Notes: a model not told the origin generated them from the sequence alone. A stretch of DNA of 64,000 bases from Candidatus Omnitrophota bacterium (GCA_044225175.1 JBGAJA010000003.1:69428-133427); one strand, 5' to 3'; counted from the stretch's first letter, positions 8,865 to 28,380 are shown. Numbers and translations are program-made.

Positions 8865-8938
8865 GTCCCAGTAGCTCAGTTGGATAGAGCATCTGCCTTC
8901 TAAGCAGAGGGTCGCACGTTCGATTCGTGCCTGGGACG
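8865..8938 (+). tRNA. tRNA-Arg (anticodon TCT)
   Basis: GTCCCAGTAGCTCAGTTGGATAGAGCATCTGCCTTCTAAGCAGAGGGTCGCACGTTCGATTCGTGCCTGGGACG folds as a 74-nt cloverleaf with anticodon loop CTTCTAA. Confidence 0.9.
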
Positions 8939-8989
8939 TTTATATTTGTTGAGAATCGAAGCTGTTTTTGATATTCTAGTGCCTCTTGT

Positions 8990-9066
8990 GGTGGCTGTAG
9001 CTCAGTTGGTAGAGTACTTGATTGTGGTTCAAGTTGTCGCGGGTTCAAATCCCGTCAGCCACCCCA
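8990..9066 (+). tRNA. tRNA-His (anticodon GTG) with encoded G(-1) and 3' CCA
   Basis: G-1 plus GTGGCTGTAGCTCAGTTGGTAGAGTACTTGATTGTGGTTCAAGTTGTCGCGGGTTCAAATCCCGTCAGCCACC, then CCA. Anticodon loop TTGTGGT. The extra 5' G pairing with discriminator C is the tRNA-His hallmark. Confidence 0.9.
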
Positions 9067-10629: not shown

Positions 10630-10799
10630 TTTTCAATACGTTTAAGTAATTTTAGTAGATCCGATTTCTTATATAAACGGTAATTGTTCATAGGATGCCG
10701 GTGGGGTGTTAATTTGCCTTGCTTGTCCCAATTTCGTAGTGTTTGACTGGTTATTTTAAGTAGTTTTGCAGCATCTTTGATGCGAAATAGTTCAGACAT
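10626..10799 (-). CDS. 57-aa MerR/excisionase-family HTH protein, candidate recombination directionality factor
   Basis: MSELFRIKDAAKLLKITSQTLRNWDKQGKLTPHRHPMNNYRLYKKSDLLKLLKRIEK. Its stop overlaps the recombinase start as ATGA. It is below the ORF-track size cutoff. Confidence 0.6.
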   Translation of the reverse strand: MSELFRIKDAAKLLKITSQTLRNWDKQGKLTPHRHPMNNYRLYKKSDLLKLLKRIEK

Positions 10800-10863
10800 T
10801 GGGATCTCCTAACCTTATAAAACATTATAAATTATAACTCGAGTTATCATTGTATTCAACGAC

Positions 10864-11361
10864 TTATTTTTGTGATTCTTTTAAATATGCTTTGGCTTCT
10901 TTAGGTGAATATCCATATTGGAAAAGACGTTCAAATTGGTGGCTGTTTCTGCAACTTTGGTAAGTTAAATCATGACAGTGTCTGCAACCAAAGTATTTAT
11001 CTACTAAATAAAGTATTCCCACGCGTTTTAGGCAAGGAACACTGTTCTTTACAAGGGGACAAATAAACCACCATTTTTTATCTCCTATAAAGTGGCTGGG
11101 GGTAGAGGTGAGTTTGACCTTGTAATCCATAGTATTTCGTCCATCCATTTCTTGATTTGTAAAAGTGTACATAAGGCGCATATATTTATCATTAGGATTA
11201 ATTGATATGATGAATTGAATGCTTCCTAATTCTTGACCAGAAGGGTCTTGCCAAGACATCACCCCTTTCTTTATGCCAGTAAAAAAGCCTTTTTTATTTA
11301 GTCTTACAGTACTTATGGAATTGCACTCTTCCACAGTTAATTTCTTAGCATGACGCCCCAT
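10864..11361 (-). CDS. Cys/His-rich hypothetical protein (possible Zn-binding)
   Basis: 165-aa ORF with CxxxxxxxxC and CRHCH clusters. No known family recognised. Confidence 0.4.
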   Translation of the reverse strand: MGRHAKKLTVEECNSISTVRLNKKGFFTGIKKGVMSWQDPSGQELGSIQFIISINPNDKYMRLMYTFTNQEMDGRNTMDYKVKLTSTPSHFIGDKKWWFICPLVKNSVPCLKRVGILYLVDKYFGCRHCHDLTYQSCRNSHQFERLFQYGYSPKEAKAYLKESQK

Positions 11362-11414
11362 TTGCGATCTCCTTTTTTCTAAATCATCGATGATTTATTT
11401 AATCTTATTTACTT

Positions 11415-12077
11415 TTATGTAACGCTATCTACTGTGCCGTTAAATGTTCTTTTGATTTCATGGATTTTCTTAAGACTTTCATCATCAATATCTTTAAGCT
11501 TTACCATTTCTTCATGCGTGTATATGATCCCATCTTCAAAATGGATACAACCGTCTTTAGACACAAAATGTAATTCCAGCTTCTCTGAGAAAAATCTTCT
11601 GGGGAGCTTTGGGACGTTTGGGACGGCATTAACAAGACTACTTTTCAAAGAGAAGTCAGCAGGTTTGGTTATAGATTCTTTTCGTGTGTGAGTCTCATTA
11701 ACATGTCCCAAGTGTCCCAACACATTCTTCTCAATGACCAATGGTTTATGTTTTTCTGCGGGTTTAATCTTCATTAAAGATCCAGTTCTTGGGTGAAGGG
11801 ATACTTTGTCATTTTTGGTAAAACTATTTTCTTTAATGCCAACAAGTGCGAATATTCGTTGATAATGATTTCCACCCTTGCCGCCGGCATTAACCACACA
11901 TCCAAATGCCCCAGTAGAAGCAACAAAAAGGTGGTTGCCTTTTTGATCATGCCCAGTCTCCGCGCAAGCCGGACACTGGGCAATGATATTATTTCCTTGA
12001 TGTTTGACTTTTGAAAGTTTACTGATGTCCAACATCTTTGAGCCTAACTTTTCTATAACCTTTATGGTCTTTTCCAT
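11415..12077 (-). CDS. Zn-ribbon protein (primase-type CPxC ... FGC zinc-binding domain) encoded downstream of the primase-helicase
   Basis: Motif AQCPACAETGHDQKGNHLFVASTGAFGCVVNAGG resembles the primase zinc-binding domain. The track ORF (to 12206) overlaps the upstream gene by 188 nt, so an internal Met start (12077 or 12035) is more likely. Confidence 0.45.
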   Translation of the reverse strand: MEKTIKVIEKLGSKMLDISKLSKVKHQGNNIIAQCPACAETGHDQKGNHLFVASTGAFGCVVNAGGKGGNHYQRIFALVGIKENSFTKNDKVSLHPRTGSLMKIKPAEKHKPLVIEKNVLGHLGHVNETHTRKESITKPADFSLKSSLVNAVPNVPKLPRRFFSEKLELHFVSKDGCIHFEDGIIYTHEEMVKLKDIDDESLKKIHEIKRTFNGTVDSVT

Positions 12078-14109
12078 TTCTGGGAATGGATCCAGATTTA
12101 GGTGTTGAGAATAATTCCAACATGTATTTTTCCAATTCTTTGGGAATAACGGTTGGAGGCTTTGGATTCCATTGTTTCTCAGCGCAGTATTCAGAATAGG
12201 CGTCAATGATTTCTTGAGTAGTTAGAGTAGAGGGGGCATCTTTTATTACTCTGTCATTGAGGAAATGTCTGATGCTATCGCTTTCTGATAACAACGCTTC
12301 TACGATGGATTTTTGATTATCTTCAAGGTGAATATCACCATATTTATTGATATCATTAAAGATCATAGCAAGGCCATGAAGCGCCCAATTCAGAATGCCA
12401 GATCCTTCTTCTTTGATGAGTAAATCTGCAAAATCAGGGATCTTTTTAATTGGAGGAGGGCATTCAAATCTTACTATTAAAAGACGCCGTCTCCAAGCGC
12501 CGGCATCAGAGTATAAGCGTATTTGAAGGCGAGAATTAGAGGTGATTACAACGCAGAATTTACCTTGGATTGGAAAATTTCCAGTTCCTCCTTTTTGTTC
12601 CGCATCAAACCAATCGCCACCGACTAACCCTTTGATAACGTGGGCACCTTTCTCAGAGAGGAAGTTCCCCGGAACATCAACTCCAACCAAGAGGGTTTTC
12701 TTTAAGTAACGATATAGTTCAAATCGTTCGCTGAGGTGTTTTGTACGTAATTCGGTAAAGTTTGCTCTTCCTATCAGATGTTGAATGATTAAAGATAATT
12801 GTGATTTTCCCCGACCAGATTCTCCATCAAGGATAAGGAATCGCTGAATAAGATTTCTTCCCAATAAGCAGAGGCCAAAATACTTTTGGATGATCGTTGA
12901 ATCAGACGCACTAACAGCAGGGAGGAGTAGTTCATTTAGGAATCTGGGGCATTTTGCATCTTTATCGTATGGGATTGGACATTGGTTTCTCGAATAAAAA
13001 TCAGGAGAGAAACTAACAAAATCTGCTTCATTGGTGTCGTTAAATACAATGATCCCATTTGCAAGATGTACAAATTTCTTATTTTCTTTGTCAAAGGCAT
13101 TTTGTTTTTCACTAATACCTTTTAATTGAGTGACGATATGAGTAAGGCAGGTGTTATACCTTTTTAATTCAAGTGATGGGATTTCTTGTTCGCGGGAGAC
13201 TTCCAATATTCTAGAAGAGATTTCTTGCTTAATTTGATCAATTGAGAGAGTCTCACGGAGGCCTGTTTCTGGATTATAAATATAGAAAGCCTTTTCATTA
13301 GGCTCAAAAAGTAAAATGTGTTCATGGTTGTACGTGCCCGCCCAAAAACATTCATTAATGGCGTAAACAATTCTTTTATCGTTTATATAATATGGTTCAC
13401 CGTAAAGATTAATTAATTCTTTGAGATCCCCCGTTGATTCTATTTCTTCAGACACTGTTTCTTTTTCAAGAGGGGGTTCATAGTAAGGCGTGTTTTGTAT
13501 TATTTCTTCGAAGTCTGATTTTTGTCCTCCAGCTTCTATCCAATCGGAAATATCTTTCACAGCAGTGTTGTTAATATCAGGTAATTCAATTATTTTTAGT
13601 TTGATCCCTTGGGGGGCTAATTTATTAGTAATATCAAATGCATGGTTACGTCCAACCTCATCTTTATCGGGCAGTATAATAACCTCCTGAGCGTCCTTAA
13701 TTGAATCTGTGTAGTTATTTTTCCATTTGCCAGCTCCCATGGCGCATGTAGTGGTAGCGTAACCCCATGAGGCAAGGTTATCTGCATCTTTTTCTCCCTC
13801 GCAAATAAAGATTGGTTGGCCCTGTTTAATCGCTTCAATTATTTCTGGTAAGTGGTATAAAACTGGTTCCACGGTCTCTAACCAGACTGCATTCGCTGAA
13901 GGAGGGGCAGACTTATCATTTGAACAATTCTTTATTAGCGAATAAGATCCCAAAGGCTCACGTTGTTCATACCAACCTTCATTACGTCCATAGGCAAAAA
14001 ATCCATTGCAGGGGCGCCCTTGAAAGAAATCTTTCTTGTCTGTGCGTAAAATTTGAAAAATAATATTTCCTCGAGTGTCTCTGTAGTCATACTTTTTTAC
14101 TATGTTCAT
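12019..14109 (-). CDS. Bifunctional DNA primase (TOPRIM) / SF3 (D5-like) helicase, replication protein of an integrative element
   Basis: TOPRIM motifs IFICEGEKDADNL and IILPDKDEVGRN; Walker A GESGRGKSQLSL in the C-terminal half. Confidence 0.75.
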   Translation of the reverse strand: MNIVKKYDYRDTRGNIIFQILRTDKKDFFQGRPCNGFFAYGRNEGWYEQREPLGSYSLIKNCSNDKSAPPSANAVWLETVEPVLYHLPEIIEAIKQGQPIFICEGEKDADNLASWGYATTTCAMGAGKWKNNYTDSIKDAQEVIILPDKDEVGRNHAFDITNKLAPQGIKLKIIELPDINNTAVKDISDWIEAGGQKSDFEEIIQNTPYYEPPLEKETVSEEIESTGDLKELINLYGEPYYINDKRIVYAINECFWAGTYNHEHILLFEPNEKAFYIYNPETGLRETLSIDQIKQEISSRILEVSREQEIPSLELKRYNTCLTHIVTQLKGISEKQNAFDKENKKFVHLANGIIVFNDTNEADFVSFSPDFYSRNQCPIPYDKDAKCPRFLNELLLPAVSASDSTIIQKYFGLCLLGRNLIQRFLILDGESGRGKSQLSLIIQHLIGRANFTELRTKHLSERFELYRYLKKTLLVGVDVPGNFLSEKGAHVIKGLVGGDWFDAEQKGGTGNFPIQGKFCVVITSNSRLQIRLYSDAGAWRRRLLIVRFECPPPIKKIPDFADLLIKEEGSGILNWALHGLAMIFNDINKYGDIHLEDNQKSIVEALLSESDSIRHFLNDRVIKDAPSTLTTQEIIDAYSEYCAEKQWNPKPPTVIPKELEKYMLELFSTPKSGSIPRNGKDHKGYRKVRLKDVGHQ

Positions 14110-14290
14110 GACGGGTTTCCTTTTTGTGTACTATTTTGTAGAATCTGATTAAATGCATAGCCAGCTCAGCAGCTTCGTCTGTTGATAAATCAATTCCGAA
14201 GGTTGATTTATAAATATTACGGAATTCGTTGGTAGCTTCTTTAGTTAACATTGTCAGACAATAAAAAACCCTATAAGTTAAGATGCTCAT
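14087..14290 (-). CDS. Small hypothetical protein upstream of the primase gene
   Basis: 67-aa ORF overlapping the primase start by 23 nt. No homolog recognised. Confidence 0.3.
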   Translation of the reverse strand: MSILTYRVFYCLTMLTKEATNEFRNIYKSTFGIDLSTDEAAELAMHLIRFYKIVHKKETRHEHSKKV

Positions 14291-14406
14291 AGGGTAATAC
14301 GAAAATATCCGTTTGTGATCGCACTAGAAAATGATTTCTTTAATGCGGGGTTAGAGCTTAGGGATTGTTAGGTGGGCTTGGATGTAATTGATTGATAAAT
14401 ATGAAG

Positions 14407-15159
14407 TTATAGTTTTAATAGATCAGATAGATAAACAGGATGATCGTCATCTAGGAGTCCCATTTCTGCATAAAATTCTATTTGCTTTTTTGGTCGATCT
14501 CTATACTCGGCGAGAATTCTTTGAATTTGAGACTCGCTAAGATCATATTTATTGAATTCATTTTCAGGAATATTCTTTTCAAGATAATTCGCTAGACGTA
14601 TTTTTATTTCTTTGAGAGGAAAACGACCTTTTTTCCAGCCTAAATCTTTAAGACATTTTATAAGGTAATTATTTCGCATTTGAGTGGCATGGTTAGCCCG
14701 AGGATTCTTTCTACCATCATTAAGAAATTCAAGTTTTCGCAGAATGGTTTTTGTGTCGGTCAAATATTTGGGCCCATCGATCGGTATTCTTTTGTTCTTA
14801 AAAATGGAAATAGGTAGTTCAATGGAGTCTTTAGGAAAGCTATCTTGATAAATATAGGTGGGAATTGAATCTTGAATTATTTTGTGAAAAAAATCTCCGT
14901 ATTGTTTTTGAACAATTTTCGGCAGCATATGGTTTAGGTATTTACCCTTCCAGTAAACCATGAAATTATTATGCTCTGTTTTTTGTCCTTCTGGTTTAAG
15001 GGAATTAGAAGGAAGTTCAGAATAAAAGGCGGCAGAAAAATCTTTGAAGATTAAAACAGGTGGTTGATGCTTAATGGGAATAATAACCACACCATTAAGG
15101 TTTTTAAAGTGCCAGTAATCGATGGAGAAGCGTTCAGATTCGGTATCCATATAAAACAT
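14407..15159 (-). CDS. Hypothetical protein (island cargo)
   Basis: 250-aa ORF with typical coding composition. No family recognised. Confidence 0.45.
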   Translation of the reverse strand: MFYMDTESERFSIDYWHFKNLNGVVIIPIKHQPPVLIFKDFSAAFYSELPSNSLKPEGQKTEHNNFMVYWKGKYLNHMLPKIVQKQYGDFFHKIIQDSIPTYIYQDSFPKDSIELPISIFKNKRIPIDGPKYLTDTKTILRKLEFLNDGRKNPRANHATQMRNNYLIKCLKDLGWKKGRFPLKEIKIRLANYLEKNIPENEFNKYDLSESQIQRILAEYRDRPKKQIEFYAEMGLLDDDHPVYLSDLLKL

Positions 15160-15311
15160 TATAAATGCAGTAATAATTTTGACCAGTTTTGATTTAGTGT
15201 TTAATTTACAAAAACATCCGAAGGTGATAATCTAATTACAATTACCATGGAGGCGGTATCGATTAATAGCCTTTAAATACATATTTAGGAACACGCTTTC
15301 CTAATTTCCAC

Positions 15312-15396
15312 CAACTTGCAGGAGGAAAGGACTGTGTCCCGACGCACTTTATTGTGCGTTCGGGGCAGGCGGTCTTTCGCTTTTACCTGCAAGTTG
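15312..15396. other. GC-rich nested stem-loop element: 11-bp outer helix enclosing a 10-bp inner hairpin. Candidate structured RNA or origin/regulatory site of the island.
   Basis: Perfect 11-bp outer inverted repeat CAACTTGCAGG at 15312-15322 / CCTGCAAGTTG at 15386-15396. Inner hairpin CCCGACGCAC (15338-15347) / GTGCGTTCGGG (15354-15364) with one bulge. It lies in a 257-nt divergent intergenic region. Confidence 0.35.
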
Positions 15397-15467
15397 GGCG
15401 ATCGACTTAAAAATGCTTGCCCCTTTTTTATTTGTTCAAGGGGAAGCAAAATAAAAAAGGGGGCAAG

Positions 15468-16019
15468 GTGAGAAATATTTTATTAGTTTTAATGAGTTTT
15501 TTGTTAGCTGGCTGTGCTGCTCTAGGCATCGAAAATTTACCTGGAACTATAAGTGAGCGTGTTTCTGGTTTTGATAACACTAAAGAAATAACTATGGAAC
15601 CAGCATGGATTACCGGTGGCCCCATTAAGCTGAATTTATATAAAACTTCTAAAATGGCAGAGAATGAAGCGATTTTAGTGGTCACCGTAAAAGGCGCCTA
15701 TAATTTTTCTAATAAAAGTTCCTTACAGATTAATATTGATGGGAATATAGTCACACTTGAGTCTATAGATGTGCTTACTGATGTTTCAACAGATCCGGGG
15801 GTGTACAATTCAGTTGTCTCTATTTCAGCAGAAAATTGGTCATCTAAACGGTATGAGGTTACAAAAGATCTTGTGAAGAAATTAATTGATGCTAAGGAGG
15901 CCTGGGTAAAAGTTAATTTATTTAAAGATTATGTTGAGGGGAACTTCTCAACAGATAAGCCTATGATGGCGCGACCAGCATTTAGGGAGTTTTATAAAAA
16001 AGCTTGGGAAGCTAAATAA
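15468..16019 (+). CDS. Lipoprotein (lipobox LLAGC)
   Basis: GTG start 15468 preceded by GGGGG; signal peptide (M)RNILLVLMSFLLAGC. The track ORF starts further upstream at TTG 15417. Confidence 0.55.
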   Translation: MRNILLVLMSFLLAGCAALGIENLPGTISERVSGFDNTKEITMEPAWITGGPIKLNLYKTSKMAENEAILVVTVKGAYNFSNKSSLQINIDGNIVTLESIDVLTDVSTDPGVYNSVVSISAENWSSKRYEVTKDLVKKLIDAKEAWVKVNLFKDYVEGNFSTDKPMMARPAFREFYKKAWEAK

Positions 16020-16110
16020 GAAGGGGGCAGATGAAGTAGATTATTTGTGCAGTAGGCATATTTTCTAGTATTTCTTTAAATGTTTTTGCTGCAGGAATAT
16101 AGGGAGGATT

Positions 16111-16380
16111 ATGAAAAATAAGATAAATAACTTGGATGTCGGTAAGAATAAGATGAAAGTGAGCCTGGAGTTAATGTTTGTGGTGGGAGCAATAGTATTC
16201 GTAGTTTTTTTTACATGGGTAACATTATTTTCAGGATTTCATGTAGCTCCATCTCAGGTGGGAACTGTGTTTATGACAATGGGTGTTTCGGTAATTGTAT
16301 TAATATTCTTTATAAATAGATTGATGCAACCAAAGATTCTTGAAGGGGGAATAAGGAGCTTGTTCTTAAGGAAGTCGTAG
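16111..16380 (+). CDS. Small two-TM membrane protein
   Basis: SD AGGGAGGATT immediately upstream of the ATG; two hydrophobic helices. Confidence 0.5.
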   Translation: MKNKINNLDVGKNKMKVSLELMFVVGAIVFVVFFTWVTLFSGFHVAPSQVGTVFMTMGVSVIVLIFFINRLMQPKILEGGIRSLFLRKS

Positions 16381-16400
16381 GAGTTGTTGGGCGTTTAGAA

Positions 16401-16814
16401 TTGCTGCCTGATAAGATTAGGATTTCAAGAAAAGGGGCTGGAGCGCTATTTACTCATGGATTTAAGGGTGATAAAGAAATCTTTATAAAGTATATTTCTT
16501 CAATTCAGTTTAAAAAGGCGGGTTTAATAATCAATGGATACATTCAGTTTGCCTTTTTAGGGGGACAGGAGTCAAAATCAGGTTTATATAGTGCCGTTCA
16601 AGATGAAAATACTATAGTGTTTAATTCTTATCAGCAGAAGGATTTTGAAGAAATAAAGGCTATGATTGAGTCTAAGATGGCGACCACAGAGAATAATAAT
16701 TCCTCAATAGATAAAAATTTGGAAGATTTAGAAAGATTGGCTAATTTGAAACAAAAGGGGATTCTTACTGAAGAAGAGTTTCAATTAAAGAAAGAACAAA
16801 TTTTGCGATTGTAA
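16401..16814 (+). CDS. SHOCT-domain protein with bacterial PH-like N-terminal domain
   Basis: C-terminal LERLANLKQKGILTEEEFQLKKEQIL matches the SHOCT motif. TTG start. Confidence 0.55.
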   Translation: MLPDKIRISRKGAGALFTHGFKGDKEIFIKYISSIQFKKAGLIINGYIQFAFLGGQESKSGLYSAVQDENTIVFNSYQQKDFEEIKAMIESKMATTENNNSSIDKNLEDLERLANLKQKGILTEEEFQLKKEQILRL

Positions 16815-16864
16815 AATAGTGGGATATTTTTGATTTATAAATTAAAAATGAAAGGTGAATAGAT

Positions 16865-17290
16865 ATGAAAAGAATTCTAGTTTTACTCTTGTGTTTTGGA
16901 TTGGTAGGGTGTGCGACGGTTCCATCTTTAGGAGAAAAATCAACATTATTAAAAGTTGGAATGTCTAAAAGTGAGGTTACTCAACTTTTGGGAGTTCCTA
17001 AGACTACTTCAGTGAATAAGACAGATGATGGTATTGTTGAGAAATGGTCATATTGGGTGAAAAAAATGGTTGGGTATGTAATGTTTGATGATCCCAATTT
17101 AGCTGGATTAGGCAATCGGTTAACGGTAACATTTAAGAATGACGTTGTTCAATCATGGGGTGATCAACTAGATTACAGTAATATGATTGATCAAAGTACA
17201 CAGGTCATGAAAGAAGCAATGAAGAATATGCAGCCAATTCAAGTTGAGCAAACAGTCTATCAAAGCAATAAAGCGGATTCTAAGAAGTAG
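16865..17290 (+). CDS. Lipoprotein (lipobox LVGC)
   Basis: MKRILVLLLCFGLVGCAT signal peptide/lipobox; SD AAAGGTGAA upstream. Confidence 0.6.
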   Translation: MKRILVLLLCFGLVGCATVPSLGEKSTLLKVGMSKSEVTQLLGVPKTTSVNKTDDGIVEKWSYWVKKMVGYVMFDDPNLAGLGNRLTVTFKNDVVQSWGDQLDYSNMIDQSTQVMKEAMKNMQPIQVEQTVYQSNKADSKK

Positions 17291-17449
17291 GCGTAGCACG
17301 CTGTCTTTTGACTTTTGTATTAGGATAAATAAGACCCTCTGGGATTTAATAAATTGCAGGGGGTTTTTATTTGGAGTAGACTTATAAGAATATGAATCGG
17401 GGGATATTGCTATTCGAATTTAAAGAACAGATGATAAAATTAAAGATCA

Positions 17450-18394
17450 TTGATGAATAAGAATTCTATTAAAAAACAATTAGCACAAGACCTGCCGGAT
17501 CGAATTAGATTTCTTTCTAGGAAGATTGCAAGAAAACCATCCTCATTTAGGTCAAGATGGGCCGTCTCTATAGATCAATCTTTTGATCTTTATACTAATA
17601 CAAGTACGGTCAATCTTATACAAAGCATCAATAATATGTTGGCTGAGGAAAATTGGCCTTTACCAGCATATCTTAATGCAAAGGGCGAAATATATAGACT
17701 TTCTCCTCTTCCAGGATTGATCAATTCTTTAAAGAGCTTCATTGGACTTAGCAGGCTTGTTTTAATTCTGATGTCTCTAAATGTTGGTCTAAATAAGAAG
17801 AAGACTTTTGATGCTCACATGTCTAACTTTTCTAGATTTTATGCAAAAGACATTTTCAGTGATTTAAAACTCAATCCTTTATTAAAAGAGAAAAGACTAA
17901 TTATTAATGAGATTGAGAAAGCGTATAGATTAAGAATGTGGGCAACATGTATTACTACTATGGTGCCTATATTTGATTTTGTTATGAGATCTTACTTTGG
18001 TTCTCAAGACCTGAAGATTTCTATTCAGACATTACGGGACGCTTTTGGAAAATCTGGTCTCAAGCCAAAAGATTTGAAGCCAGGTCATGCTATTTGGGAG
18101 GCGCGTGAAAATCCTCATAAAGGTAATACCTTTACCAAATCGATAGAAGAGGATCTTCGGCTTCCAGGCGTTTATTTATCTTCATTCTTTGAGTTCGCAG
18201 ATAGATACTACGGATGGTATGAATCTACGGATAACCCCGATGCTCTTCTCAATAGACATGCTATTATACATTGTTCTACAGGATGTTGGAACGAGCCTAA
18301 TGCGATCAGGCTGCTGACATTCTTAGATTTAACCCTTAAACTTGAGAATGTATTAAAAACTTTAATACATGGGGACACTTTTGTTGATACTTAA
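17450..18394 (+). CDS. Hypothetical protein, possible partner of the downstream DUF4238 protein
   Basis: 314-aa ORF. No recognised family. Confidence 0.45.
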   Translation: MMNKNSIKKQLAQDLPDRIRFLSRKIARKPSSFRSRWAVSIDQSFDLYTNTSTVNLIQSINNMLAEENWPLPAYLNAKGEIYRLSPLPGLINSLKSFIGLSRLVLILMSLNVGLNKKKTFDAHMSNFSRFYAKDIFSDLKLNPLLKEKRLIINEIEKAYRLRMWATCITTMVPIFDFVMRSYFGSQDLKISIQTLRDAFGKSGLKPKDLKPGHAIWEARENPHKGNTFTKSIEEDLRLPGVYLSSFFEFADRYYGWYESTDNPDALLNRHAIIHCSTGCWNEPNAIRLLTFLDLTLKLENVLKTLIHGDTFVDT

Positions 18395-18593
18395 ATAAGA
18401 TTAAACATTTAGTGAGATCCCGGTCTTGGAAATTTTTGTTTTTCAGAAGGGAAGATGCCCGACGGACTTTGTTACTAGGGTTTGTAATGAAACAACGTCG
18501 GTGTATGACTGTTTCAGTCATGGTGTAGCGTTCTAGACGGCTAACTTACCTCTCCCACAGACCTGATATTCACAAACAAGCAACGCGGAAAAT

Positions 18594-21098
18594 ATGGATA
18601 CAACCCGCAAAAATCATTATGTCCCTAAATGGTATCAGAAGCGATTCTTATCTTCGGAGAAGAGTGCTTTTCATTACCTGAATCTCAACCCATCTTTAAT
18701 TAAGATTTCTAATGGCACAAAGCTAAGCAAGGCTATTGACTGGCCGTGTAGTCCTAGACAATGTTTTTGGGAACAGGATCTTTATAACACGTCGTATTTC
18801 GGCTTTATTGATGATGAAATCGAAAGGCGTCTGTTTGGGGAAATTGATCGTACTGGGGCCAAAGCGATTGATGCCATGGCCGCTCAGGATATGAGGCGGA
18901 TGCACGCAACGTTCGAGGACTTCTTTGAGTATATTGATGGACAGAGAATCCGCACTCCCAAAGGGCTGGCATGGCTTAAATCTAAATATCCTAATCTGAC
19001 ACATAATCAATTGCTGATGGAAATGCAGCGTATACGGCAAATGCACTGCACCCTTTGGGTGGAGGCAGTTCGGGAAATAGTGTACGCGGACACTTCTGCT
19101 GTGAAGTTCCTTGTCTCGGACAATCCCGTTACTTTTTATAACCACGCTTGTAATCCTGATTCAGAAGAATGTCGTTACCCGGATGACCCAAGAATTGAGA
19201 TGAAAGCGACGCAGACCATTTTTCCTTTAGACAGCAATCGTTGCCTTATTTTGACCAATTTGGACTATGCTCGTAATCCAAATCTAGCGGATCCCAAGGC
19301 TTGGAGACCCAATGCTAATCCTTTTCGTCCGACTATGGGAAGAATTGATACAACGATTTGTGAGCGACACTTGCAAGATCACGAAGTGGTGGCTATCAAC
19401 TACATAATCAAAAGTAGGGCAAAGCAATACATAGCTGCGGAAAAAAGGGAATGGCTTGAGCCCGAGAAGATTTTTAAAGGCGATTGGAAAGTAGCGGGTA
19501 AGGTGTTATTGCCTCCAAAAGATGAGTTGCACCATTTCGGTGGAGAAATGTATGGTCAGTATGAAGATGGCCGATATTTCTATCGTGATGCGTATGGCAG
19601 AACTCATGGGGAAGCAGAACACTTAAAGAAAGATCCTCCAAAAGGCAAGATTGGTGCCAACCATCCTTGTACGTGCGGCAGTGGTAAGAAGTACAAGAAA
19701 TGTTGTCGTGATAAGGCTGAGGAAGATAGACCTTCTAGCTCCCAACGCAGTATTCGGGAGAGAAATTTGATGTTTTTCAGCATTGTCTCCAAGATTCTAG
19801 GACTTGAAGAAAATAATTGGACCGAAGTAAGAAGGCAACTTACTGACAAGAAGGTCGTTGATGTTCATAAGGCTGTTGCGGCATTGTGGCCTCCGGATAC
19901 GGACTTAATGGCTTTGCTACCGCGACCGGATGCCAAAGTTTCACGGGCTCTTTATTCAGGATTATTAGATCCCAGGGTCACATACAAAGATATTGCGGCA
20001 CTTTTGCCTTATGTGGACGAGATTTTGTTGATAAATCCATTTTTAAACCCAAATGTACTTCAGAAGAAATTTAATCCCATTGATAATCCTGCTCAATTTA
20101 GGTATGAAACGCTAAAGAATGTGCTTTTCTTAATGCCTTTGATGCCTTTGATCTCAGCCGGAAGGGTTAATGTGATTCCTGATCCCTTACATTTTAATCC
20201 TGCTTTAAGACAACAAATTTGGGCAGAAGCTGAAAAGCGTCGGGGAAAAGTTCAGATAGACGAAAAGATGATGAAATCAAATACAGAATTTGCAAAGGAT
20301 GACTTCAGGCGATTCATTTTTAGCGGTCCGGAAGATCGAATAAGGAGATTTGTTAAGAAAACAAATCCCGACATGACGGATGTAGAAATGGAGAAGTTTC
20401 TTGCTTATACACGGAAGCAGAACGAAGAAGATCCTCTCGTTTTGCTTGATCCAGCCACCGCTCAAGATGGTCAAGGCCAAGTCATGGTATTTCATCTAAA
20501 CCCTAATTTTGAATTAGGGATGTTTTTAGCTCAAGCGACAGGATCATTTATTGTCACATCCCATCCGTATAGATGGTCTGAGATTTGCTCATCAATAGAC
20601 TATTTCTATAGTGGTGCTCAATCAGCATGGGATCCTATCGCCAAATACATAATGGATTTTGAAATGGATTTTGCGCATTTCTCAGATCAAAGAGACTTTG
20701 TGTCTATGCTTAATGGCGGCGGGTTTCCAGACATGAAAAGCGCTTTAAGAAATGTCTGGAATATGGTGCAGACTGAAAGGCCCGTAGATGCTTCACAAAT
20801 AGACGGGCTTTTGAAAGATATTGACCATGGGCGAGAAAAAACGAAAGTGTCGATCGACAAACTAATGCAGCAGAAAAATGACGATCAGGCAGAATATTTG
20901 AGAGTAATAAAAACCAAAGCAAAGCTAAGTGCTAAGATTGCACCTGCTGGACATAGTACTAGTTTGGTGTATCGGCAGCTTTTGGCTCATGCGGGGCATG
21001 ATAAGTATCTAAAGGCTTTACCGTTGGCATTGTACATTGAACATGAAGAAATCAATGAAGATGGACTGGCTAAACAGCCAGAACAAGCGCCTTCTTAA
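18594..21098 (+). CDS. Large DUF4238-like N-terminal domain protein with an internal SEC-C metal-binding motif; candidate anti-phage/abortive-infection protein
   Basis: The N-terminus NHYVPKWYQKRF matches the HYVP..Y...F signature I associate with DUF4238. HPCTCGSGKKYKKCC at about aa 355 is a SEC-C motif. About 470 aa of unassigned C-terminal sequence follow. Confidence 0.55.
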   Translation: MDTTRKNHYVPKWYQKRFLSSEKSAFHYLNLNPSLIKISNGTKLSKAIDWPCSPRQCFWEQDLYNTSYFGFIDDEIERRLFGEIDRTGAKAIDAMAAQDMRRMHATFEDFFEYIDGQRIRTPKGLAWLKSKYPNLTHNQLLMEMQRIRQMHCTLWVEAVREIVYADTSAVKFLVSDNPVTFYNHACNPDSEECRYPDDPRIEMKATQTIFPLDSNRCLILTNLDYARNPNLADPKAWRPNANPFRPTMGRIDTTICERHLQDHEVVAINYIIKSRAKQYIAAEKREWLEPEKIFKGDWKVAGKVLLPPKDELHHFGGEMYGQYEDGRYFYRDAYGRTHGEAEHLKKDPPKGKIGANHPCTCGSGKKYKKCCRDKAEEDRPSSSQRSIRERNLMFFSIVSKILGLEENNWTEVRRQLTDKKVVDVHKAVAALWPPDTDLMALLPRPDAKVSRALYSGLLDPRVTYKDIAALLPYVDEILLINPFLNPNVLQKKFNPIDNPAQFRYETLKNVLFLMPLMPLISAGRVNVIPDPLHFNPALRQQIWAEAEKRRGKVQIDEKMMKSNTEFAKDDFRRFIFSGPEDRIRRFVKKTNPDMTDVEMEKFLAYTRKQNEEDPLVLLDPATAQDGQGQVMVFHLNPNFELGMFLAQATGSFIVTSHPYRWSEICSSIDYFYSGAQSAWDPIAKYIMDFEMDFAHFSDQRDFVSMLNGGGFPDMKSALRNVWNMVQTERPVDASQIDGLLKDIDHGREKTKVSIDKLMQQKNDDQAEYLRVIKTKAKLSAKIAPAGHSTSLVYRQLLAHAGHDKYLKALPLALYIEHEEINEDGLAKQPEQAPS

Positions 21099-21232
21099 TT
21101 GTCATATGGAGATTAGATTCTTTCCTTGGGGCAGGGGGCATGTTTCTTCTTTGCTATTTTTGGGGTTGAGAGTAAAATTACTTTATGATTAACATACTCA
21201 TGCAATTGAGCGTCTTTTAGTTATGGGAACTA

Positions 21233-21865
21233 ATGAACATTGAGATTTTAAGTAAGATTAGCGGGTATTTACAAATTGGTATCTTTGTGTGCGGGATCCT
21301 CACCACTGGGTTAGCATTTGTTAAATATAAAATTGATAAACAAATTGGATCTTCCAAAGATCTCCAGATTAAACAGCTTGATAGTTATTCTGAATTTTAT
21401 CGTTTAAGTGTATCTGTCCGAGCCGATAGTAGAGCGGCTCTCGACAAGCTCAAAGAGATATCTCAAAATAAATATGATGTTAGACAATCTTTGGTTGCCG
21501 ACACGCTAAAAGATTTTCCTAAAGAAGCAGAGCACATAAATCTCTTAGAATACCCCATTGATTGGCAACAGATTGGTATTGATCCCACAAAAGCTACGCT
21601 AGAAGTCTTTCAAGAACTATATAATCATGCTGCGCCAGTGTACCAAAGTAAAATAATGCAGACTGTTTGGGGCGCTACACAGATTCAAAAGAAAGAAAAG
21701 ATTCAGTTCTTGATTGATATTATACGTACCACTCCATCCGTTAGGTGTTTAAGGGAGGCATGTATTCTTTTGAATCCAGAAGCAAAGCTGGGCAGGAATT
21801 TTATGCTATGGGAAGAATATATTAAATGGTGGGATAATAACAAGGATAAGTATCAGAAGTCATAA
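21233..21865 (+). CDS. Membrane-anchored hypothetical protein
   Basis: N-terminal TM ISGYLQIGIFVCGILTTGLAFV; 210 aa. Confidence 0.45.
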   Translation: MNIEILSKISGYLQIGIFVCGILTTGLAFVKYKIDKQIGSSKDLQIKQLDSYSEFYRLSVSVRADSRAALDKLKEISQNKYDVRQSLVADTLKDFPKEAEHINLLEYPIDWQQIGIDPTKATLEVFQELYNHAAPVYQSKIMQTVWGATQIQKKEKIQFLIDIIRTTPSVRCLREACILLNPEAKLGRNFMLWEEYIKWWDNNKDKYQKS

Positions 21866-21884
21866 AACGTATACGGAGATCATT

Positions 21885-22196
21885 ATGAAGAATATAATGC
21901 TTTGCCTTTTGGTGTCATTATTTTTAGTTGGCTGCGGCGAGAATGACGGAAGATTTGAAGTGAAGAATGTTAAATTACCTGTGCGGACCACAATCGCAGC
22001 AAATACGGTAAATGCGGGGGGTTCAAGAATTGAATACCAGGAAGAACTTATAAAGGTTGATACCAAAACCGGTAAGGTATGGAAGCTACAGCATGGTTCT
22101 AGCCAGATTGGAGGAAGTATTTCTGAGTTCAGCTTATGGGATGAACTGGGCAATACTTATCGTGAGAACGGCAAAGATGTAAGGAAGCCTCAGTAA
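21885..22196 (+). CDS. Small lipoprotein (lipobox LVGCG)
   Basis: MKNIMLCLLVSLFLVGCGEN; SD ACGGAGAT upstream. Confidence 0.55.
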   Translation: MKNIMLCLLVSLFLVGCGENDGRFEVKNVKLPVRTTIAANTVNAGGSRIEYQEELIKVDTKTGKVWKLQHGSSQIGGSISEFSLWDELGNTYRENGKDVRKPQ

Positions 22197-22271
22197 GAGC
22201 TCTTATTAATTAGTCGATGAGTAATCGGTAGCTTTAAATGTAGCTTAAAAGTTCTTTCTTTTAACCAGACT

Positions 22272-22284
22272 GGGACCCCATTTC
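22272..22284 (+). repeat. Degenerate copy (GGGACCCCATTTC) of the tRNA-His 3'-end / att core, at the 5' truncation point of the ATPase remnant
   Basis: It shares ACCCCAT(A)TTTC with the tRNA-His end (gccACCCCATaTTTCg at 9058-9073). Confidence 0.3.
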
Positions 22285-22329
22285 TATCGCCCTGTCCCTA
22301 TTTAGGGGACTGGCCCTTTCTACTTTCTA

Positions 22330-22679
22330 CGTTATCTGGTAAGGCGTATATTTCTTTATTTAAAGAAGCTAAAGCCAAAGGTTACAGAATTACAGTTTTT
22401 TATTTAAGTATTCCAAGTAATAAGCTTGCTCAAGAGAGAGTGAAGCAGCGCGTTAAAGAGGGTGGGCATAATGTGCCAATAGTTGATATTAATAGGCGAT
22501 TTATTAGAAGTTGGCAGAATTTCATTAACCTTTATATGCCACTAACAGATTCTTGGTTGTTACTTGATAATTCAATGCTTAAACCAATTGAAGTAGCAAA
22601 ATGTGATCATGGTAAGATCAAAGTTTTGAATAAATCTTTATATAAAGAATTAATGGAGGGTAGAGATGACAAGTCTTAA
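22330..22679 (+). pseudogene. 5'-truncated paralog of the zeta-toxin-like ATPase gene (C-terminal ~110 codons only)
   Basis: Translation KEAKAKGYRITVFYLSIPSNKLAQERVKQRVKEGGHNVPIVDINRRF... aligns with the C-terminal half of the 23518..24090 protein (KEVKSKGYSVHIFFLWIPSEDLAKQRIKQRVKQGGHHVPDADVKRRL). The Walker-A N-terminal half is missing. Confidence 0.65.
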
Positions 22680-22833
22680 ATCTAGTACATTAATTTTAAA
22701 TAAAGCAGGAAAAGCAATGCGAAGTGCTGTACGTAAGGTTTTAGCAGAAAAGAAATTGAGAGGTGAGCCTGCTATTATTTGGAAGGATGGCAAGGTTGTA
22801 AAAGTCCCTGCAAGTCAATTAAGCAAAGCTTAA
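22666..22833 (+). CDS. 55-aa small protein, paralog A of the partner gene downstream of the zeta-like ATPase
   Basis: MTSLKSSTLILNKAGKAMRSAVRKVLAEKKLRGEPAIIWKDGKVVKVPASQLSKA, with SD GGAGGG 6 nt upstream. It is paralogous to 24087..24257 (shared core RGEPxIIWKxGKVVKxPA). Confidence 0.5.
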   Translation: MTSLKSSTLILNKAGKAMRSAVRKVLAEKKLRGEPAIIWKDGKVVKVPASQLSKA

Positions 22834-22834
22834 G

Positions 22835-22866
22835 CAGGTACGGATAACGTCCCGCCAGCGACCCCA
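22835..22866 (+). repeat. att-like degenerate copy of the tRNA-His 3' half (core CCCGCCAGCGACCCCA)
   Basis: 14/16 identity to the tRNA-His 3' end CCCGTCAGCCACCCCA (9051-9066). Preceded by GGTACGGATAAC, which resembles the T-arm. Confidence 0.5.
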
Positions 22867-22973
22867 GCTCTTGTAACACCTTGAATTTTATGAAGTTAAA
22901 AAGTTCGAGGCTGTCCCATGACCCTTCGCAATTAATTTTGCGAAGGGTTTAATTTTTGTGATATGCTTTCTCT

Positions 22974-23435
22974 ATGCCCTCCCAAGAAAACAAGATTCTT
23001 CAAGAAGCATTTAGCCCAATCTTTAAAAGATACGGGTATAAGAAGCATGGTGCAACATGGCATCATGATAATAAGGAATTGATCTCGTGTTTCAACATAC
23101 AAGGATCGCAATGGTCAAAAGCATTCTATTTAAACTTGGGGATTTATATTAAAGCTTTGGGTGATAAATCTTTTCCTAATGAATATGAATGTCATGTGCG
23201 ATTGCGAATAGAAGGGCTTGTGGATGAGAGATCAAAAGTGCATCAATTGCTAGATTTTGAGAATTCTCTGCCTCAAGAGTCTCGGCTTAAAGAATTAACC
23301 AAGATCGTTGAAGATAAAGTTATTCCGTGGTTTCAGAAAATTAGCACCTCGGAAGATTTGCGGAAGATGATTTTAGAAATGAAGCTACAAGTAGTAACAA
23401 AGATCGCTAAAGAACATCTTGGCATTATTGATTAA
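22974..23435 (+). CDS. DUF4304-like hypothetical protein
   Basis: KKHGATWHHDNKELISCFNIQGSQWSKAFYLNLGIYIKAL matches the pattern (KkGnnWyr...NlQkSqws..fyiNlGi) I recall for DUF4304. Confidence 0.45.
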   Translation: MPSQENKILQEAFSPIFKRYGYKKHGATWHHDNKELISCFNIQGSQWSKAFYLNLGIYIKALGDKSFPNEYECHVRLRIEGLVDERSKVHQLLDFENSLPQESRLKELTKIVEDKVIPWFQKISTSEDLRKMILEMKLQVVTKIAKEHLGIID

Positions 23436-23459
23436 AGATAAAATAGTTACAAAACTCGT

Positions 23460-23475
23460 CCCGTAAGTGACCCCA
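23460..23475 (+). repeat. Third degenerate att-like core (CCCGTAAGTGACCCCA)
   Basis: 13/16 match to the tRNA-His 3' end. Extended similarity (16/21) to copy A including the preceding CGTCCCG. Confidence 0.3.
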
Positions 23476-23517
23476 GTTTTTTCCTCTCAAGCTTAGGTTT
23501 TATGGTAGACTTTAATC

Positions 23518-24090
23518 ATGCCTAAGCTTTATATAATTGCTGGTCCTAATGGCGCCGGAAAAACTACATTTGCTAAAGAATTTCTTCCTTCCTATGCGAA
23601 ATGTTCCAATTTTGTCAATGCAGATTTGATTGCGTTAGGTCTTTCTCCTTTCAGTCCAGCTCAAGTCAGTATTAAGGCTGGTAAATTGTTACTCGGTGAA
23701 ATCGATAATTTCATAATCCGTAAGATGGATTTCGCCTTTGAAACAACTCTCGCTGGAAGAACATATATAAATTTAATCAAAGAAGTTAAATCTAAAGGAT
23801 ATTCTGTACACATTTTCTTTTTGTGGATACCCAGCGAGGATTTAGCTAAACAAAGAATAAAGCAACGGGTCAAACAAGGTGGGCATCATGTGCCTGATGC
23901 AGATGTCAAAAGAAGGTTACGCCGTAGTCTGAAGAATTTTTTTAATCACTATAGTCCCTTGGTTGATGGATGGGACATTTTTGATAATTCCGGATCAGAG
24001 CCAAAATTGGTGGTTAAATCTAATGAAAAAGGGTTTCAGATTATTGATAAAGAACTTTATCGATATTTGCTCAACAAGGAGAACATATGA
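23518..24090 (+). CDS. Zeta-toxin-like / AAA_33-type P-loop kinase-fold ATPase
   Basis: Walker A IIAGPNGAGKTTFA. The overall fold matches zeta-toxin/UDP-GlcNAc-kinase-like proteins. 190 aa. Confidence 0.6.
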   Translation: MPKLYIIAGPNGAGKTTFAKEFLPSYAKCSNFVNADLIALGLSPFSPAQVSIKAGKLLLGEIDNFIIRKMDFAFETTLAGRTYINLIKEVKSKGYSVHIFFLWIPSEDLAKQRIKQRVKQGGHHVPDADVKRRLRRSLKNFFNHYSPLVDGWDIFDNSGSEPKLVVKSNEKGFQIIDKELYRYLLNKENI

Positions 24091-24257
24091 TTAAGAAAGT
24101 CGAAGGTGATGTTCTTTCTAAGAAAGCAGAAAAAGCCATGAAGAAGGCTGTGCAAGGTGTGATTGCAGACCGCAAAATGCGAGGCGAGCCTTTGATCATT
24201 TGGAAGAACGGTAAAGTTGTAAAGATTCCTGCTAAGGACTTAAAGCGGTTCGGATAA
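24087..24257 (+). CDS. 56-aa small protein, paralog B, translationally coupled (ATGA) to the ATPase
   Basis: MIKKVEGDVLSKKAEKAMKKAVQGVIADRKMRGEPLIIWKNGKVVKIPAKDLKRFG. Its start overlaps the ATPase stop. Its 3' end overlaps the att-like repeat. Confidence 0.5.
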   Translation: MIKKVEGDVLSKKAEKAMKKAVQGVIADRKMRGEPLIIWKNGKVVKIPAKDLKRFG

Positions 24258-24276
24258 CCTCCCGCCAGCGACCCCA
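24245..24276 (+). repeat. att-like degenerate copy of the tRNA-His 3' half (GCGGTTCGGATAACCTCCCGCCAGCGACCCCA)
   Basis: The core CCCGCCAGCGACCCCA is identical to copy A. The upstream GGTTCGGATAACC mimics the tRNA T-arm GGGTTCAAATCCC. Confidence 0.5.
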
Positions 24277-24370: not shown

Positions 24371-24802
24371 ATGGCATCAATAAATCCACACATTAATTTC
24401 AACGGAAATGCCGAAGAAGCATTTACATTTTACAAATCGATGTTCGGCGGAGAATTTGCAAAGGTGATGCGTTTTAAAGACCTCGCAAGCCCGGGATTTG
24501 AAATCGCAGAAAAAGATAAGAATAAGATTATGCACATTGCTTTGCCTATCGGTAAAAGCAGTATGTTAATGGCAAACGACGTGCCAGAATTTATGGGAAA
24601 GACTAATGAGCGTGAGAATAGAAGCAAGATTGTCATAAGTGCAGATAGCAAAGAAGAGGCAGATAAATTATTTCATGGTCTTTCAGCTGGTGGAGAAGTA
24701 GAGATGCCAATTGGGAAAAGCCCCTGGGGTTCATACTTTGGTATGTTTAGAGATAAATACGGTATTGAATGGATAGTAGATTTTGACCCTAAGAGGTTTT
24801 AA
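24371..24802 (+). CDS. VOC-superfamily protein (PhnB/YjdN-like glyoxalase-fold)
   Basis: The pattern INFNGNAEEAFTFYKSMFGG ... EEADKLFHGLSAGGEVEMP ... YGIEWIV is typical of PhnB-like proteins. SD GGAGGTAAGC upstream. Confidence 0.6.
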   Translation: MASINPHINFNGNAEEAFTFYKSMFGGEFAKVMRFKDLASPGFEIAEKDKNKIMHIALPIGKSSMLMANDVPEFMGKTNERENRSKIVISADSKEEADKLFHGLSAGGEVEMPIGKSPWGSYFGMFRDKYGIEWIVDFDPKRF

Positions 24803-24840
24803 CAGCTATAGGCCATGGCCCGTTTTCAATAACATAAACC

Positions 24841-24871
24841 CCTGTGACGTAAGAAGTTACAGGTTTTTTTT
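24841..24871 (+). terminator. Rho-independent terminator (CCTGTGAC ... GTTACAGG plus T8)
   Basis: 8-bp stem with one G-U wobble followed by eight T's. Confidence 0.65.
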
Positions 24872-24983
24872 GACCGGTAGCGGAACCCGCAGCAAATGAA
24901 ATAGTTTTTATAGGATTTGAAGTTGATGAAGAGTTCTCTATAATGCAATTAACAAAGAAATAGAACTGCATAGGGGCATTTCA

Positions 24984-25921: not shown

Positions 25922-26302
25922 ATGAAAAGAAAAAATCAAAAAGGATTTACCCTGGTAGAAGTTATGGTTTCGGTTTTTATTGTTTTTATAACGATGGTGG
26001 GGACTCTGCAGCTATACGTGCATACTTCGCGCCTGGCGGAAATTGCTGGAGATAAGAGTATCGTTCTTAACGAAGCCCAAAATAAGATGGATGAAATTCG
26101 TAATACCGCCTTTAGTTTGATCGCCTCAACTTATCCTACAGGAACAACATTTGCTTTGCCCTCACAATTAACAGGAAGCGCCACGATTACCTTAGATACA
26201 TCTAACAGTAACATCTATGGTGTCACCATCACGATGACATGGAAGAATAAGAAAGGGTTCGGCTCAACGTTAACACTTGTTAGCAGGATTGCAAATAAAT
26301 GA
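25922..26302 (+). CDS. Prepilin-type N-terminal cleavage/methylation domain protein (PilV/GspH-like minor pilin)
   Basis: KGFTLVEVMVSVFIVFI prepilin signature. Confidence 0.7.
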   Translation: MKRKNQKGFTLVEVMVSVFIVFITMVGTLQLYVHTSRLAEIAGDKSIVLNEAQNKMDEIRNTAFSLIASTYPTGTTFALPSQLTGSATITLDTSNSNIYGVTITMTWKNKKGFGSTLTLVSRIANK

Positions 26303-26829: not shown

Positions 26830-26852
26830 ATAATGAGAAATTGTAAAAAAAT

Positions 26853-28322: not shown

Positions 28323-28346
28323 CCAGCGACCCTATGATTTTACAAG

Positions 28347-28380
28347 CCTCTGTAACTTAAGAAGTTGCAGAGGTTTTATT
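28347..28380 (+). terminator. Rho-independent terminator (CCTCTGTAAC/GTTGCAGAGG plus TTTTATTT)
   Basis: 10-bp stem with one wobble. Its loop is similar to the terminator at 24841. Confidence 0.6.

Follow-up and report, generated by a model that had tools for sequence, protein, structure and literature searches.

Repeats downstream of a tRNA-His gene as probable severed tails of a large serine recombinase in a stack of integrative elements

Downstream of a tRNA-His gene in a Candidatus Omnitrophota bacterium (GCA_044225175.1, JBGAJA010000003.1:69428-133427), a series of short repeats resembles the 3' end of that tRNA. We analysed the whole 64-kb stretch (the window, with coordinates counted from its first letter), which probably holds a tandem stack of integrative elements at the tRNA-His 3' end, built by one family of large serine recombinases (LSRs). 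The repeats would be severed tails of these recombinases, and the attachment site of the element (attP) would lie inside the LSR gene itself. Our confidence in how the stack formed is lower than our confidence in the identity of the site.

Transfer RNA genes were called by ARAGORN, protein domains by Pfam, and RNA families by Rfam. The features on which the argument turns are the following.

8864-8939: tRNA-Arg, directly upstream of tRNA-His.
8991..9066, + strand: tRNA-His (GUG), from ARAGORN and the sequence; its 3' end, TCCCGTCAGCCACCCCA, is the putative chromosomal half-site (B) of the attachment site.
9055..10629, - strand: LSR of 524 amino acids (aa) with Pfam domains Resolvase, Recombinase, and Zn_ribbon_recom; adjoins tRNA-His.
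9067..22280: intact LSR island of 13.2 kb, with the LSR, a MerR-like gene, a Toprim/DUF5906 primase-helicase, and cargo.
22272..22284, + strand: J0, which reads GGGACCCCA (22272-22280) and then TTTC; the reverse strand reads WGPSLVKRKNF-stop.
22832..22866, + strand: copy A, AAGCAGGTACGGATAACGTCCCGCCAGCGACCCCA; the reverse strand encodes WGRWRDVIRTCLSFA and a stop; a putative severed LSR tail and P half-site.
23438..23475, + strand: copy C, ..TCCCGTAAGTGACCCCA; a degenerate relic, putatively of a tail from another allele, with WGHLRDEF... on the reverse strand.
24242..24276, + strand: copy B, AAAGCGGTTCGGATAACCTCCCGCCAGCGACCCCA; the reverse strand encodes WGRWREVIRTALSP and a stop.
24801..24889, + strand: copy D, a degenerate motif AACAGCTATAGGCCATGGCCC (24801-24821) after a VOC gene, then a conserved spacer, a hairpin, a T-run, and an inverse module.
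28323..28377, + strand: copy E, a truncated motif CCAGCGACCC (28323-28332) directly 3' of a pilin-like operon, then a hairpin of the same family.

The tRNA-His gene ends in the 16 nucleotides CCCGTCAGCCACCCCA (9051-9066), and every repeat sequence listed in the original prediction is present where it had been placed, including the one at 28323-28332. The sequence CCCGCCAGCGACCCCA occurs at both 22851-22866 and 24261-24276, CCCGTAAGTGACCCCA at 23460-23475, and GACCCCATTTC at 22274-22284, with a GACCCCA core at 22274-22280. The tRNA look-alikes A (22850-22866), C (23459-23475), and B (24260-24276) are all found 3' to the tRNA gene and in its orientation, and the repeats match its end at 14/16 and 13/16 positions, in register with the CCA end. 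When the window was searched with the 16-mer at up to three mismatches, four matches were found against 0.14 expected, and 0/100 shuffles reached four, which bears out the recurrence of a degenerate tRNA-His end. The heptamer GACCCCA alone is not enriched window-wide (7 against 4.4 expected); its four occurrences on one strand within 2 kb, which had also been pointed out, have a Poisson P of about 5.5e-6, or about 3.5e-4 when corrected for 64 possible windows. The conserved unit is about 35 nt, longer than first described, and copies A and B agree at 28/31 positions overall and at 17/17 at the 3' end, with similarity falling to 30% right after CCCCA. Within the window, the motif family is restricted to 22.8-28.4 kb.

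The identity of the motif emerges when its opposite strand is read, i.e., it encodes WGRWRDVIRTCL.., the native C-terminal tail of the LSR family. The reverse complement of every copy, taken in frame with the W-G of the LSR, gives WGRWRDVIRTCLM.. or a close variant, the readings including WGHWREDVRTCLMAS and WGRWRERVRTCLMV. A conserved Arg codon in this tail is CGT in some copies and AGA in others, a switch that points to constraint at the protein level. The LSR of the window, with Pfam matches to PF00239 (3e-17), PF07508 (4e-14), and PF13408 (5e-13), ends instead in the codons TGG GGT GGC TGA (W-G-G-stop), which are the reverse complement of the tRNA-His 3' end; its open reading frame (ORF) thus crosses attL. 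All of its Pfam domains are kept in this integrated form, and the reconstructed free form would end ..NEIWGPSLVKRKNF in place of ..WGG. A short forward-strand ORF over the motif (..PLNRYG-stop) was dismissed as an artefact of this reverse-strand coding.

The same two endings recur among the best 120 homologues of the window LSR, in a family whose members come from contigs labelled Omnitrophota, Scalindua, Elusimicrobia, and Margulisiibacteriota. At least 67 of the 120 end in W-G, then G, E, R, or P, then a stop, and further homologues run on into ..RRDSNP.. or WWRIRDSNP, which is the tRNA T-arm read backwards. The endings WGG-stop (TGG GGT GGC TGA) and WGE-stop (TGG GGT GAG TGA) reproduce exactly both forms of the tRNA-His 3' end that were encountered here. 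The family tail WGRW..VRTCL.. is kept in the called intact ORFs of about 10 of the 120, for instance as WGRWLEDVRTCLML, WGRWLHQVRTCLMS, WGRWLEDVRTCLMLLPTT, WGRWLKQVRNCLITEPATV, and WGPFLDEVRTCLLKVA. We refer by L numbers to the relatives, which are metagenome contigs carrying the motif or LSR homologues, together with GTDB species-representative loci carrying toxin homologues. The intact tail of L261 and L262 is encoded by a homologue of the motif within an uninterrupted site, ..GTTCTAACATCCTCCAGCCACCGACCCCA (P) running directly into TTTTTGATTTT (P'). The LSR homologues of L260, L263, and L265 (53-67% identity) end KWGE-stop or KWGG-stop inside tRNA-His, and recombinase ORFs crossing into tRNA-His were found in four genomes. 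The L263 locus is a complete, independent island of 9.7 kb with both ends visible: its LSR ends KKWGE-stop in tRNA-His, and the tail relic TGGGGTCGCTGGCGGGAC.., which reads WGRWRDSVRTCLTHLIS and a stop, lies 9.7 kb from the LSR.

Taken together, these tails and junctions place the putative attP within the 3' end of the LSR gene, with a core, ACCCCA(T), in common with attB. In the window, this core is found with the junction of tRNA and P' at 9066/9067 and that of P and B' at 22280/22281. If the motif is a severed recombinase tail left at the far end of each island, then each copy marks a module boundary. The tail alleles differ (WGPS.. in J0, RDVIRT and REVIRT in A and B, RDEF in C), which argues for separate integrations and not local duplication.

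According to the original prediction, the repeats were degenerate copies of the tRNA-His 3' end, left as scars by serial integrations that each renewed an att site. A model of this kind, with a tyrosine integrase and decayed tRNA copies, would account for repeats on the same strand, downstream, and in register with the CCA end at 14/16 and 13/16 matches, and such tandem arrays are well known (PMC7192596). Nevertheless, we consider it very improbable. No Phage_integrase domain was detected in the 20 window ORFs scanned, and the tRNA-proximal gene is a serine recombinase. Moreover, the 17-mer TCCCGCCAGCGACCCCA is invariant in relatives where the host tRNA-His ends ..CCCCTCACTCACCCCA or ..CCCGTCACTCACCCCA, with three different ends in all, so the motif appears to be carried by the element and not copied from the host tRNA; it is also conserved as coding sequence of the serine recombinase. 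The T-arm mimicry proposed for GGTwCGGATAAC proved weak, with 5 nt too many in the "T-loop" part and no tRNA-like match in Rfam; more broadly, Rfam gave no match at the motif in the window or in six relative contigs. What stands of the earlier claim is that the repeats look like att remnants at right-hand module borders downstream of tRNA-His; what does not is their origin as regenerated local tRNA copies. An RNA hairpin with covariation in GGTwCGGATAAC was also considered, and variants inspected by eye gave no consistent pairing.

The modules that the repeats delimit are, in order after J0, truncated toxin-antitoxin (TA) pair 1, copy A, DUF4304, copy C, TA pair 2, copy B, and VOC.

22322..22833, + strand: module 1 (TA1), a 5'-truncated zeta-toxin-like gene (weak Pfam Zeta_toxin match) and a 55-aa partner.
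22974..23435, + strand: module 2, a DUF4304 gene (Pfam), followed by copy C.
23518..24257, + strand: module 3 (TA2), a full zeta-toxin-like ATPase (190 aa) and a 56-aa partner, from Pfam and homologues.
24371..24802, + strand: module 4, a VOC/glyoxalase-family gene (Pfam).

Relatives show that these segments vary independently, the variation that had been proposed as a check. Upstream, the order PtsP, a membrane protein (about 500-505 aa), tRNA-Arg, and tRNA-His is the same in the window, L236, L247, and L260, and the content downstream of it differs. After tRNA-His, L236 has a remnant of an IS481-like element (insertion sequence, IS), a full TA1 orthologous to the truncated one of the window, a motif copy, a gene for 1355 aa, and a degenerate motif. 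In L209, an LSR island homologous with that of the window ends in the motif copy TCCCGCCAGTGACCCCA (9794-9810), after which come a full IS481-like element, TA1 (again full-length and orthologous), and another motif copy. The window, for its part, has the LSR island, truncated TA1, DUF4304, TA2, and VOC. These differences support the tandem accretion of modules. Since the same sequence (IS481-like element and TA1) follows the CCCCA of tRNA-His in L236 and the CCCCA of a motif copy in L209, the junction must lie exactly at the CCCCA end. The distance from tRNA-His to the motif, downstream and on the same strand, is 1.1-4.5 kb in L208, L226, L236, and L247. The only contigs with a toxin identical to that of the window (L001 and L002) both have the window's own layout and thus offer no usable variation within the population.

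The inverted repeats of the IS481-like element, TACCGGAGACATAGGTAACA, are subterminal. The L209 copy (9811-11120 as oriented) is complete, with a 390-aa transposase, and remnants are present in L236 (8143-8431 in record orientation) and L247. In each of these loci, 11-12 nt separate the element from the preceding CCCCA, whether this belongs to tRNA-His or to a motif copy, and the spacer is different every time, which suggests that the element has its own preference for the CCCCA site.

A metagenome scan with ANNTCCCGCCAGCGACCCCA retrieved 54 loci, about 15 of which are low-GC contigs; there, the full 35-nt element stands 3' of at least eight unrelated upstream genes or sequences. Scans of viral contigs yielded just a conserved phage coding motif and chance matches with TCCCGNNAGNGACCCCA, a single chance match with the 20-nt pattern, and nothing with the LSR protein.

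This spread also bears on whether the TA module was simply duplicated together with its 3' flank. Copies A and B do both follow homologous antitoxin-like genes. The flank, however, is far better conserved (28/31) than the TA1 and TA2 genes, whose DNA is just 56-59% identical, so the motif is not simply part of a duplicated gene pair. The motif also follows unrelated genes, i.e., DUF4304, VOC, and others in relatives, and homologues of the TA genes occur elsewhere without it, both close ones (three loci with toxin homologues of 79-81% identity) and distant ones (80 GTDB loci, on which ground the motif as part of the TA genes was rejected). With chance resemblance excluded by the shuffles, local duplication or chance is an explanation to which we give practically no credence.

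Next to be weighed is a structured intergenic repeat unrelated to the recombinase, either an attC site in a cluster of attC sites lacking an integron integrase (CALIN) or a terminator element like repetitive extragenic palindromic (REP) sequences. In relatives, many motif copies are followed by a module of spacer, hairpin, T-run, and an inverse segment (CTGACGGGGCGTTAGAAC) that pairs at 13/14 positions with TAACGTCCCGCCAG in the motif; hairpins of the same family also occur at 17333 and 28344 in the window, TTCTAAC is similar to the integron core site RYYYAAC and GTTAGAA to GTTRRRY, and the units are cassette-sized and rich in TA pairs. Against this, the junctions fall right after CCCCA and not between G and TT of the inverse segment, as seen from L236 versus L209 and from the recombinase frames, and copies A, B, and C of the window have no inverse partner. 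No IntI was seen in any locus. A REP-like dispersal was likewise not observed, given that copies within the 64 kb are confined to the stretch downstream of tRNA-His and that the single tRNA-His is no more than 5 kb from the motif in 4 of about 8 long contigs from relatives. Finally, the motif belongs to intact LSR ORFs. We therefore regard this explanation as improbable, and the attC reading was set aside, the junctions being elsewhere and the motif being recombinase coding sequence. A dif/Xer site was considered as well, GGTGCGGATAA being a sequence that we take to resemble the E. coli XerC arm, and was dropped for want of an XerD arm or dyad beside it.

The hairpins form a terminator-like family of the type ..CTGTrAC-loop-GTyACAG.., found in the window at 17333-17366, 24836-24869, and 28344-28377 and also in L226, L227, L233, L236, and L263. 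In relatives, the hairpin is followed by a T-run and CCCTGACGGGGCGTTAGAAC, which is complementary at 13/14 positions to part of the motif, and the module 3' of copy D in the window is the same as that after motif copies in relatives. Post-motif hairpin modules were tried as decayed 3' ends of LSR genes, with an alignment that was unconvincing past the first 10 nt or so. The hairpin and inverse module may be the native terminator flank (B'), in which case two copies per locus would be unexpected from a single integration.

Returning to the severed-tail reading, we propose that attP is contained in the final 15-20 codons of the LSR gene, where the conserved Trp codon TGG is the complement of the tRNA CCA end, and that crossover would take place within ACCCCA(T). 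Integration would fuse the body of the LSR gene to the tRNA, leaving a protein that ends ..WGG-stop or ..WGE-stop, and would leave the codons of the native tail (WGRW..VRTCL..) at the opposite end of the island as attR. The products would be tRNA joined to P'-LSR at one end and the tail (P) joined to B' at the other, and A, B, C, J0, and the weaker D and E would all be severed tails. We infer that the P half-site resembles the tRNA end because one recombinase binds both P and B. J0 is the probable attR, or right end, of the intact island, by its position and by analogy with L209 and L236; its outside flank TTTCTATCG resembles TTTCTTATTGG, the flank at the attR of L209. The stack would then span 9.07 to at least 24.3 kb and probably reaches 28.4 kb, copy E being a genuine truncated member of the family and probably the oldest relic. 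The intact island next to the tRNA is presumably the youngest. Older elements would have lost their recombinase-proximal parts, while the distal cargo, including two TA pairs, stayed along with the tail relic. TA pairs, which are addictive, would resist loss beside the relics.

Several points weigh against this account. Its support is sequence comparison throughout. The tail relic at J0, WGPSLVKRKNF-stop, departs from the family consensus, and its position and the likeness of its flank to that of L209 are what speak for it; copies D and E are weak. No recognisable remnant of the recombinase side (P') follows copies A, C, or B, and L240/L252 alone shows one. In L226, the hairpin and inverse-repeat module stands directly 3' of the native tRNA-His, which a single simple integration does not predict. 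Canonical serine integrases are not known to recombine attP with attL or attR, so the stack would have had to grow in some less usual way. Earlier elements may have eroded and the tRNA end then been used again, attR may have served as a pseudo-attB, or non-autonomous cassettes may have been moved in trans.

The last of these routes amounts to a different account of the small units, with the identity of the site unchanged: TA1, DUF4304, TA2, and VOC would be non-autonomous cassettes with a minimal attP (the T-rich start of P' and the P motif), each inserted singly by an LSR acting in trans. We consider this possible but on balance rather unlikely. The units are indeed tiny (0.6-0.8 kb) and tightly bounded, the sequence after CCCCA is T-rich (TTTTTAGACC, GTTTTTTCC) like the authentic P' arms TTTTTGATTTT and TTTTTTATTTT, and the 17-mer is perfectly kept in units without a recombinase. 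In L240/L252, a HicAB unit and motif are followed by just a 13-codon LSR remnant (..LLYFGDSNEI, then WG) at one P/P' junction, which fits either tandem insertion or a minimal cassette; L240 had been tried as an LSR island beside a motif copy and was rejected, as only these 13 codons remain. On the other hand, no conserved sequence of half-site length (20-25 nt) is common to the left ends of the units of the window, for none of the single cassettes was a circular form or an empty-site pair seen, and the truncated TA1 toxin, together with the IS remnant in relatives, makes it plain that erosion does happen here.

More speculatively, an LSR family with attP in its own gene and the tRNA-His CCA end as its target may be widespread, with the exchange of its tail for one or two tRNA-templated residues sensing the state of integration, and with attR, as a pseudo-attB or an alternative excision partner, letting islands stack and capture modules. 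We offer this only tentatively. Were it true, the tail swap would alter the stability, activity, or directionality of the enzyme.

The machinery described here, i.e., a serine integrase, a tRNA island, and a tandem array, is familiar, and it is the arrangement that is unusual. In the large serine integrases known from phages and other mobile elements, attP lies outside the integrase ORF, and attB is mostly in protein-coding genes. The window LSR is like the phiC31, Bxb1, and A118 integrases in its Resolvase, Recombinase, and Zn ribbon domains, the neighbouring small HTH gene, and the short att core, and unlike them in that attP would overlap the 3' end of the ORF and attB would be the CCA end of tRNA-His. 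Integrons and CALINs likewise offer small, mostly single-operon units, one conserved 3' site, TA and VOC cargo, and, in some relatives, an imperfect palindrome; here, in contrast, there is no IntI, the junction is off the GTTRRRY core, the site is serine recombinase coding sequence, and the anchor is a tRNA.

Tandem arrays of genomic islands at tRNA genes, of the Islander/TIGER type, have been described (Hudson 2015, PMC4383910; Mageeney 2020, PMC7192596). The window resembles these arrays in the stacking at one tRNA 3' end, the distal tRNA-like att remnant, and the modules that vary among relatives, and it shows the classical tRNA-island trait of variable DNA directly at the tRNA-His 3' end with an upstream flank conserved in relatives. 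Almost all Islander/TIGER arrays, however, involve tyrosine integrases and a displaced fragment that was truly copied from the host tRNA, whereas here the enzyme is an LSR and the "fragment" is element-borne coding sequence, invariant across hosts. According to Mageeney et al., no serine integrase had been reported at a t(m)RNA gene until the 14 candidates listed there, which still need proof (PMC7192596).

Integrases with an att site inside their own gene have been described as exclusively archaeal tyrosine enzymes (Badel et al. 2021, PMC8371274). As in these "suicidal" integrases of the SSV type, att would lie inside the integrase gene here, integration at a tRNA would partition that gene, and the flanking fragments would be fossils. 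The SSV-type enzymes are archaeal tyrosine recombinases whose gene is destroyed by integration, whereas the window has a bacterial serine recombinase in which just a tail of about 15-20 residues would be exchanged and the recognised domains stay intact. In mycobacteriophages with integration-dependent immunity, BPs among them, attP reportedly lies inside a phage gene, and integration is said to change the C-terminus and hence the stability of the protein. The affected gene in those phages encodes the repressor, and their integrase belongs to the tyrosine enzymes; that the tail swap of the LSR has a regulatory role is a hypothesis. A literature search of incomplete coverage returned no serine recombinase with attP in its own 3' end and none targeting tRNA-His, and both serine integrases at tRNA genes and att sites inside the integrase gene are barely documented in bacteria.

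Serine integrases, which are valued for genome engineering, seldom have a tRNA gene as their natural target. If a large family of them is naturally directed at the conserved tRNA-His end, it could provide a ready-made landing site in many bacteria. With attP inside the recombinase ORF, the protein would differ between its free and integrated states, a state dependence described so far, for integrases themselves, just in archaeal tyrosine enzymes. The severed tails could also serve as compact fossils from which island borders and the order of past insertions may be read in uncultured genomes without close references, and they suggest how TA and other small modules become cargo.

Two further genes of the intact island are as follows.

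10626..10799, - strand: MerR/HTH_17 protein of 57 aa (Pfam), directly upstream of the LSR.
12019-14109: Toprim/DUF5906 primase-helicase (Pfam).

The MerR/HTH_17 protein is a candidate excisionase or directionality factor, and its pairing with the LSR is also found in five relatives (L260, L261, L262, L263, and L265). The island backbone has homologues in L209, L260, L262, and L265. Cargo at 18594-21098 encodes a protein of 834 aa that combines DUF4238 at its N-terminus with a SEC-C motif. Elsewhere in the family, the islands contain a type I restriction system (L265) or clusters of helicase and nuclease genes (L261), and such cargo may be defence-related.

Homologues of the zeta-like toxin number in the thousands, many of them named Candidatus Omnitrophica by their sources; a look-up of the VOC protein of the window gave no record. 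At GTDB loci from several unrelated phyla that have distant homologues of the toxin (L010, L011, L036, L040, L046, and L061), zeta-toxin-like pairs of this family lie no more than a few hundred bases from tRNA genes (Pro, Gln, Glu, Leu, and Asn), and such pairs may often ride on tRNA-targeting elements. The pilin-like operon of the window (25922-28322), whose first gene has a prepilin methylation motif (N_methyl), has the truncated motif copy directly at its 3' side and may be old accreted cargo rather than core genome.

Some smaller observations concern the relatives and the LSR gene. A promoter-like sequence, ATACCnnnGTAyAATTGAyTCATTTT, precedes different genes in L226 (about 7770-7800), L236 (about 9750-9780, oriented), L227, L233, and L247. 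Just 3' of a motif copy in L244 (1946-2017, - strand), the c-di-GMP-I riboswitch is matched below threshold (30.8 bits, where the gathering score is 35; E 0.007). Lastly, a palindrome resembling a T-loop, GGTTCGAACC or GGTTCTAAC, lies within the LSR codons for HNRFEP (9120-9135 in the window, with the same position in L260-L262; conserved as ..HNR(L/F)EP.. in the family). It is about 60 nt away from the crossover and may be a coincidence or part of an extended attachment site.

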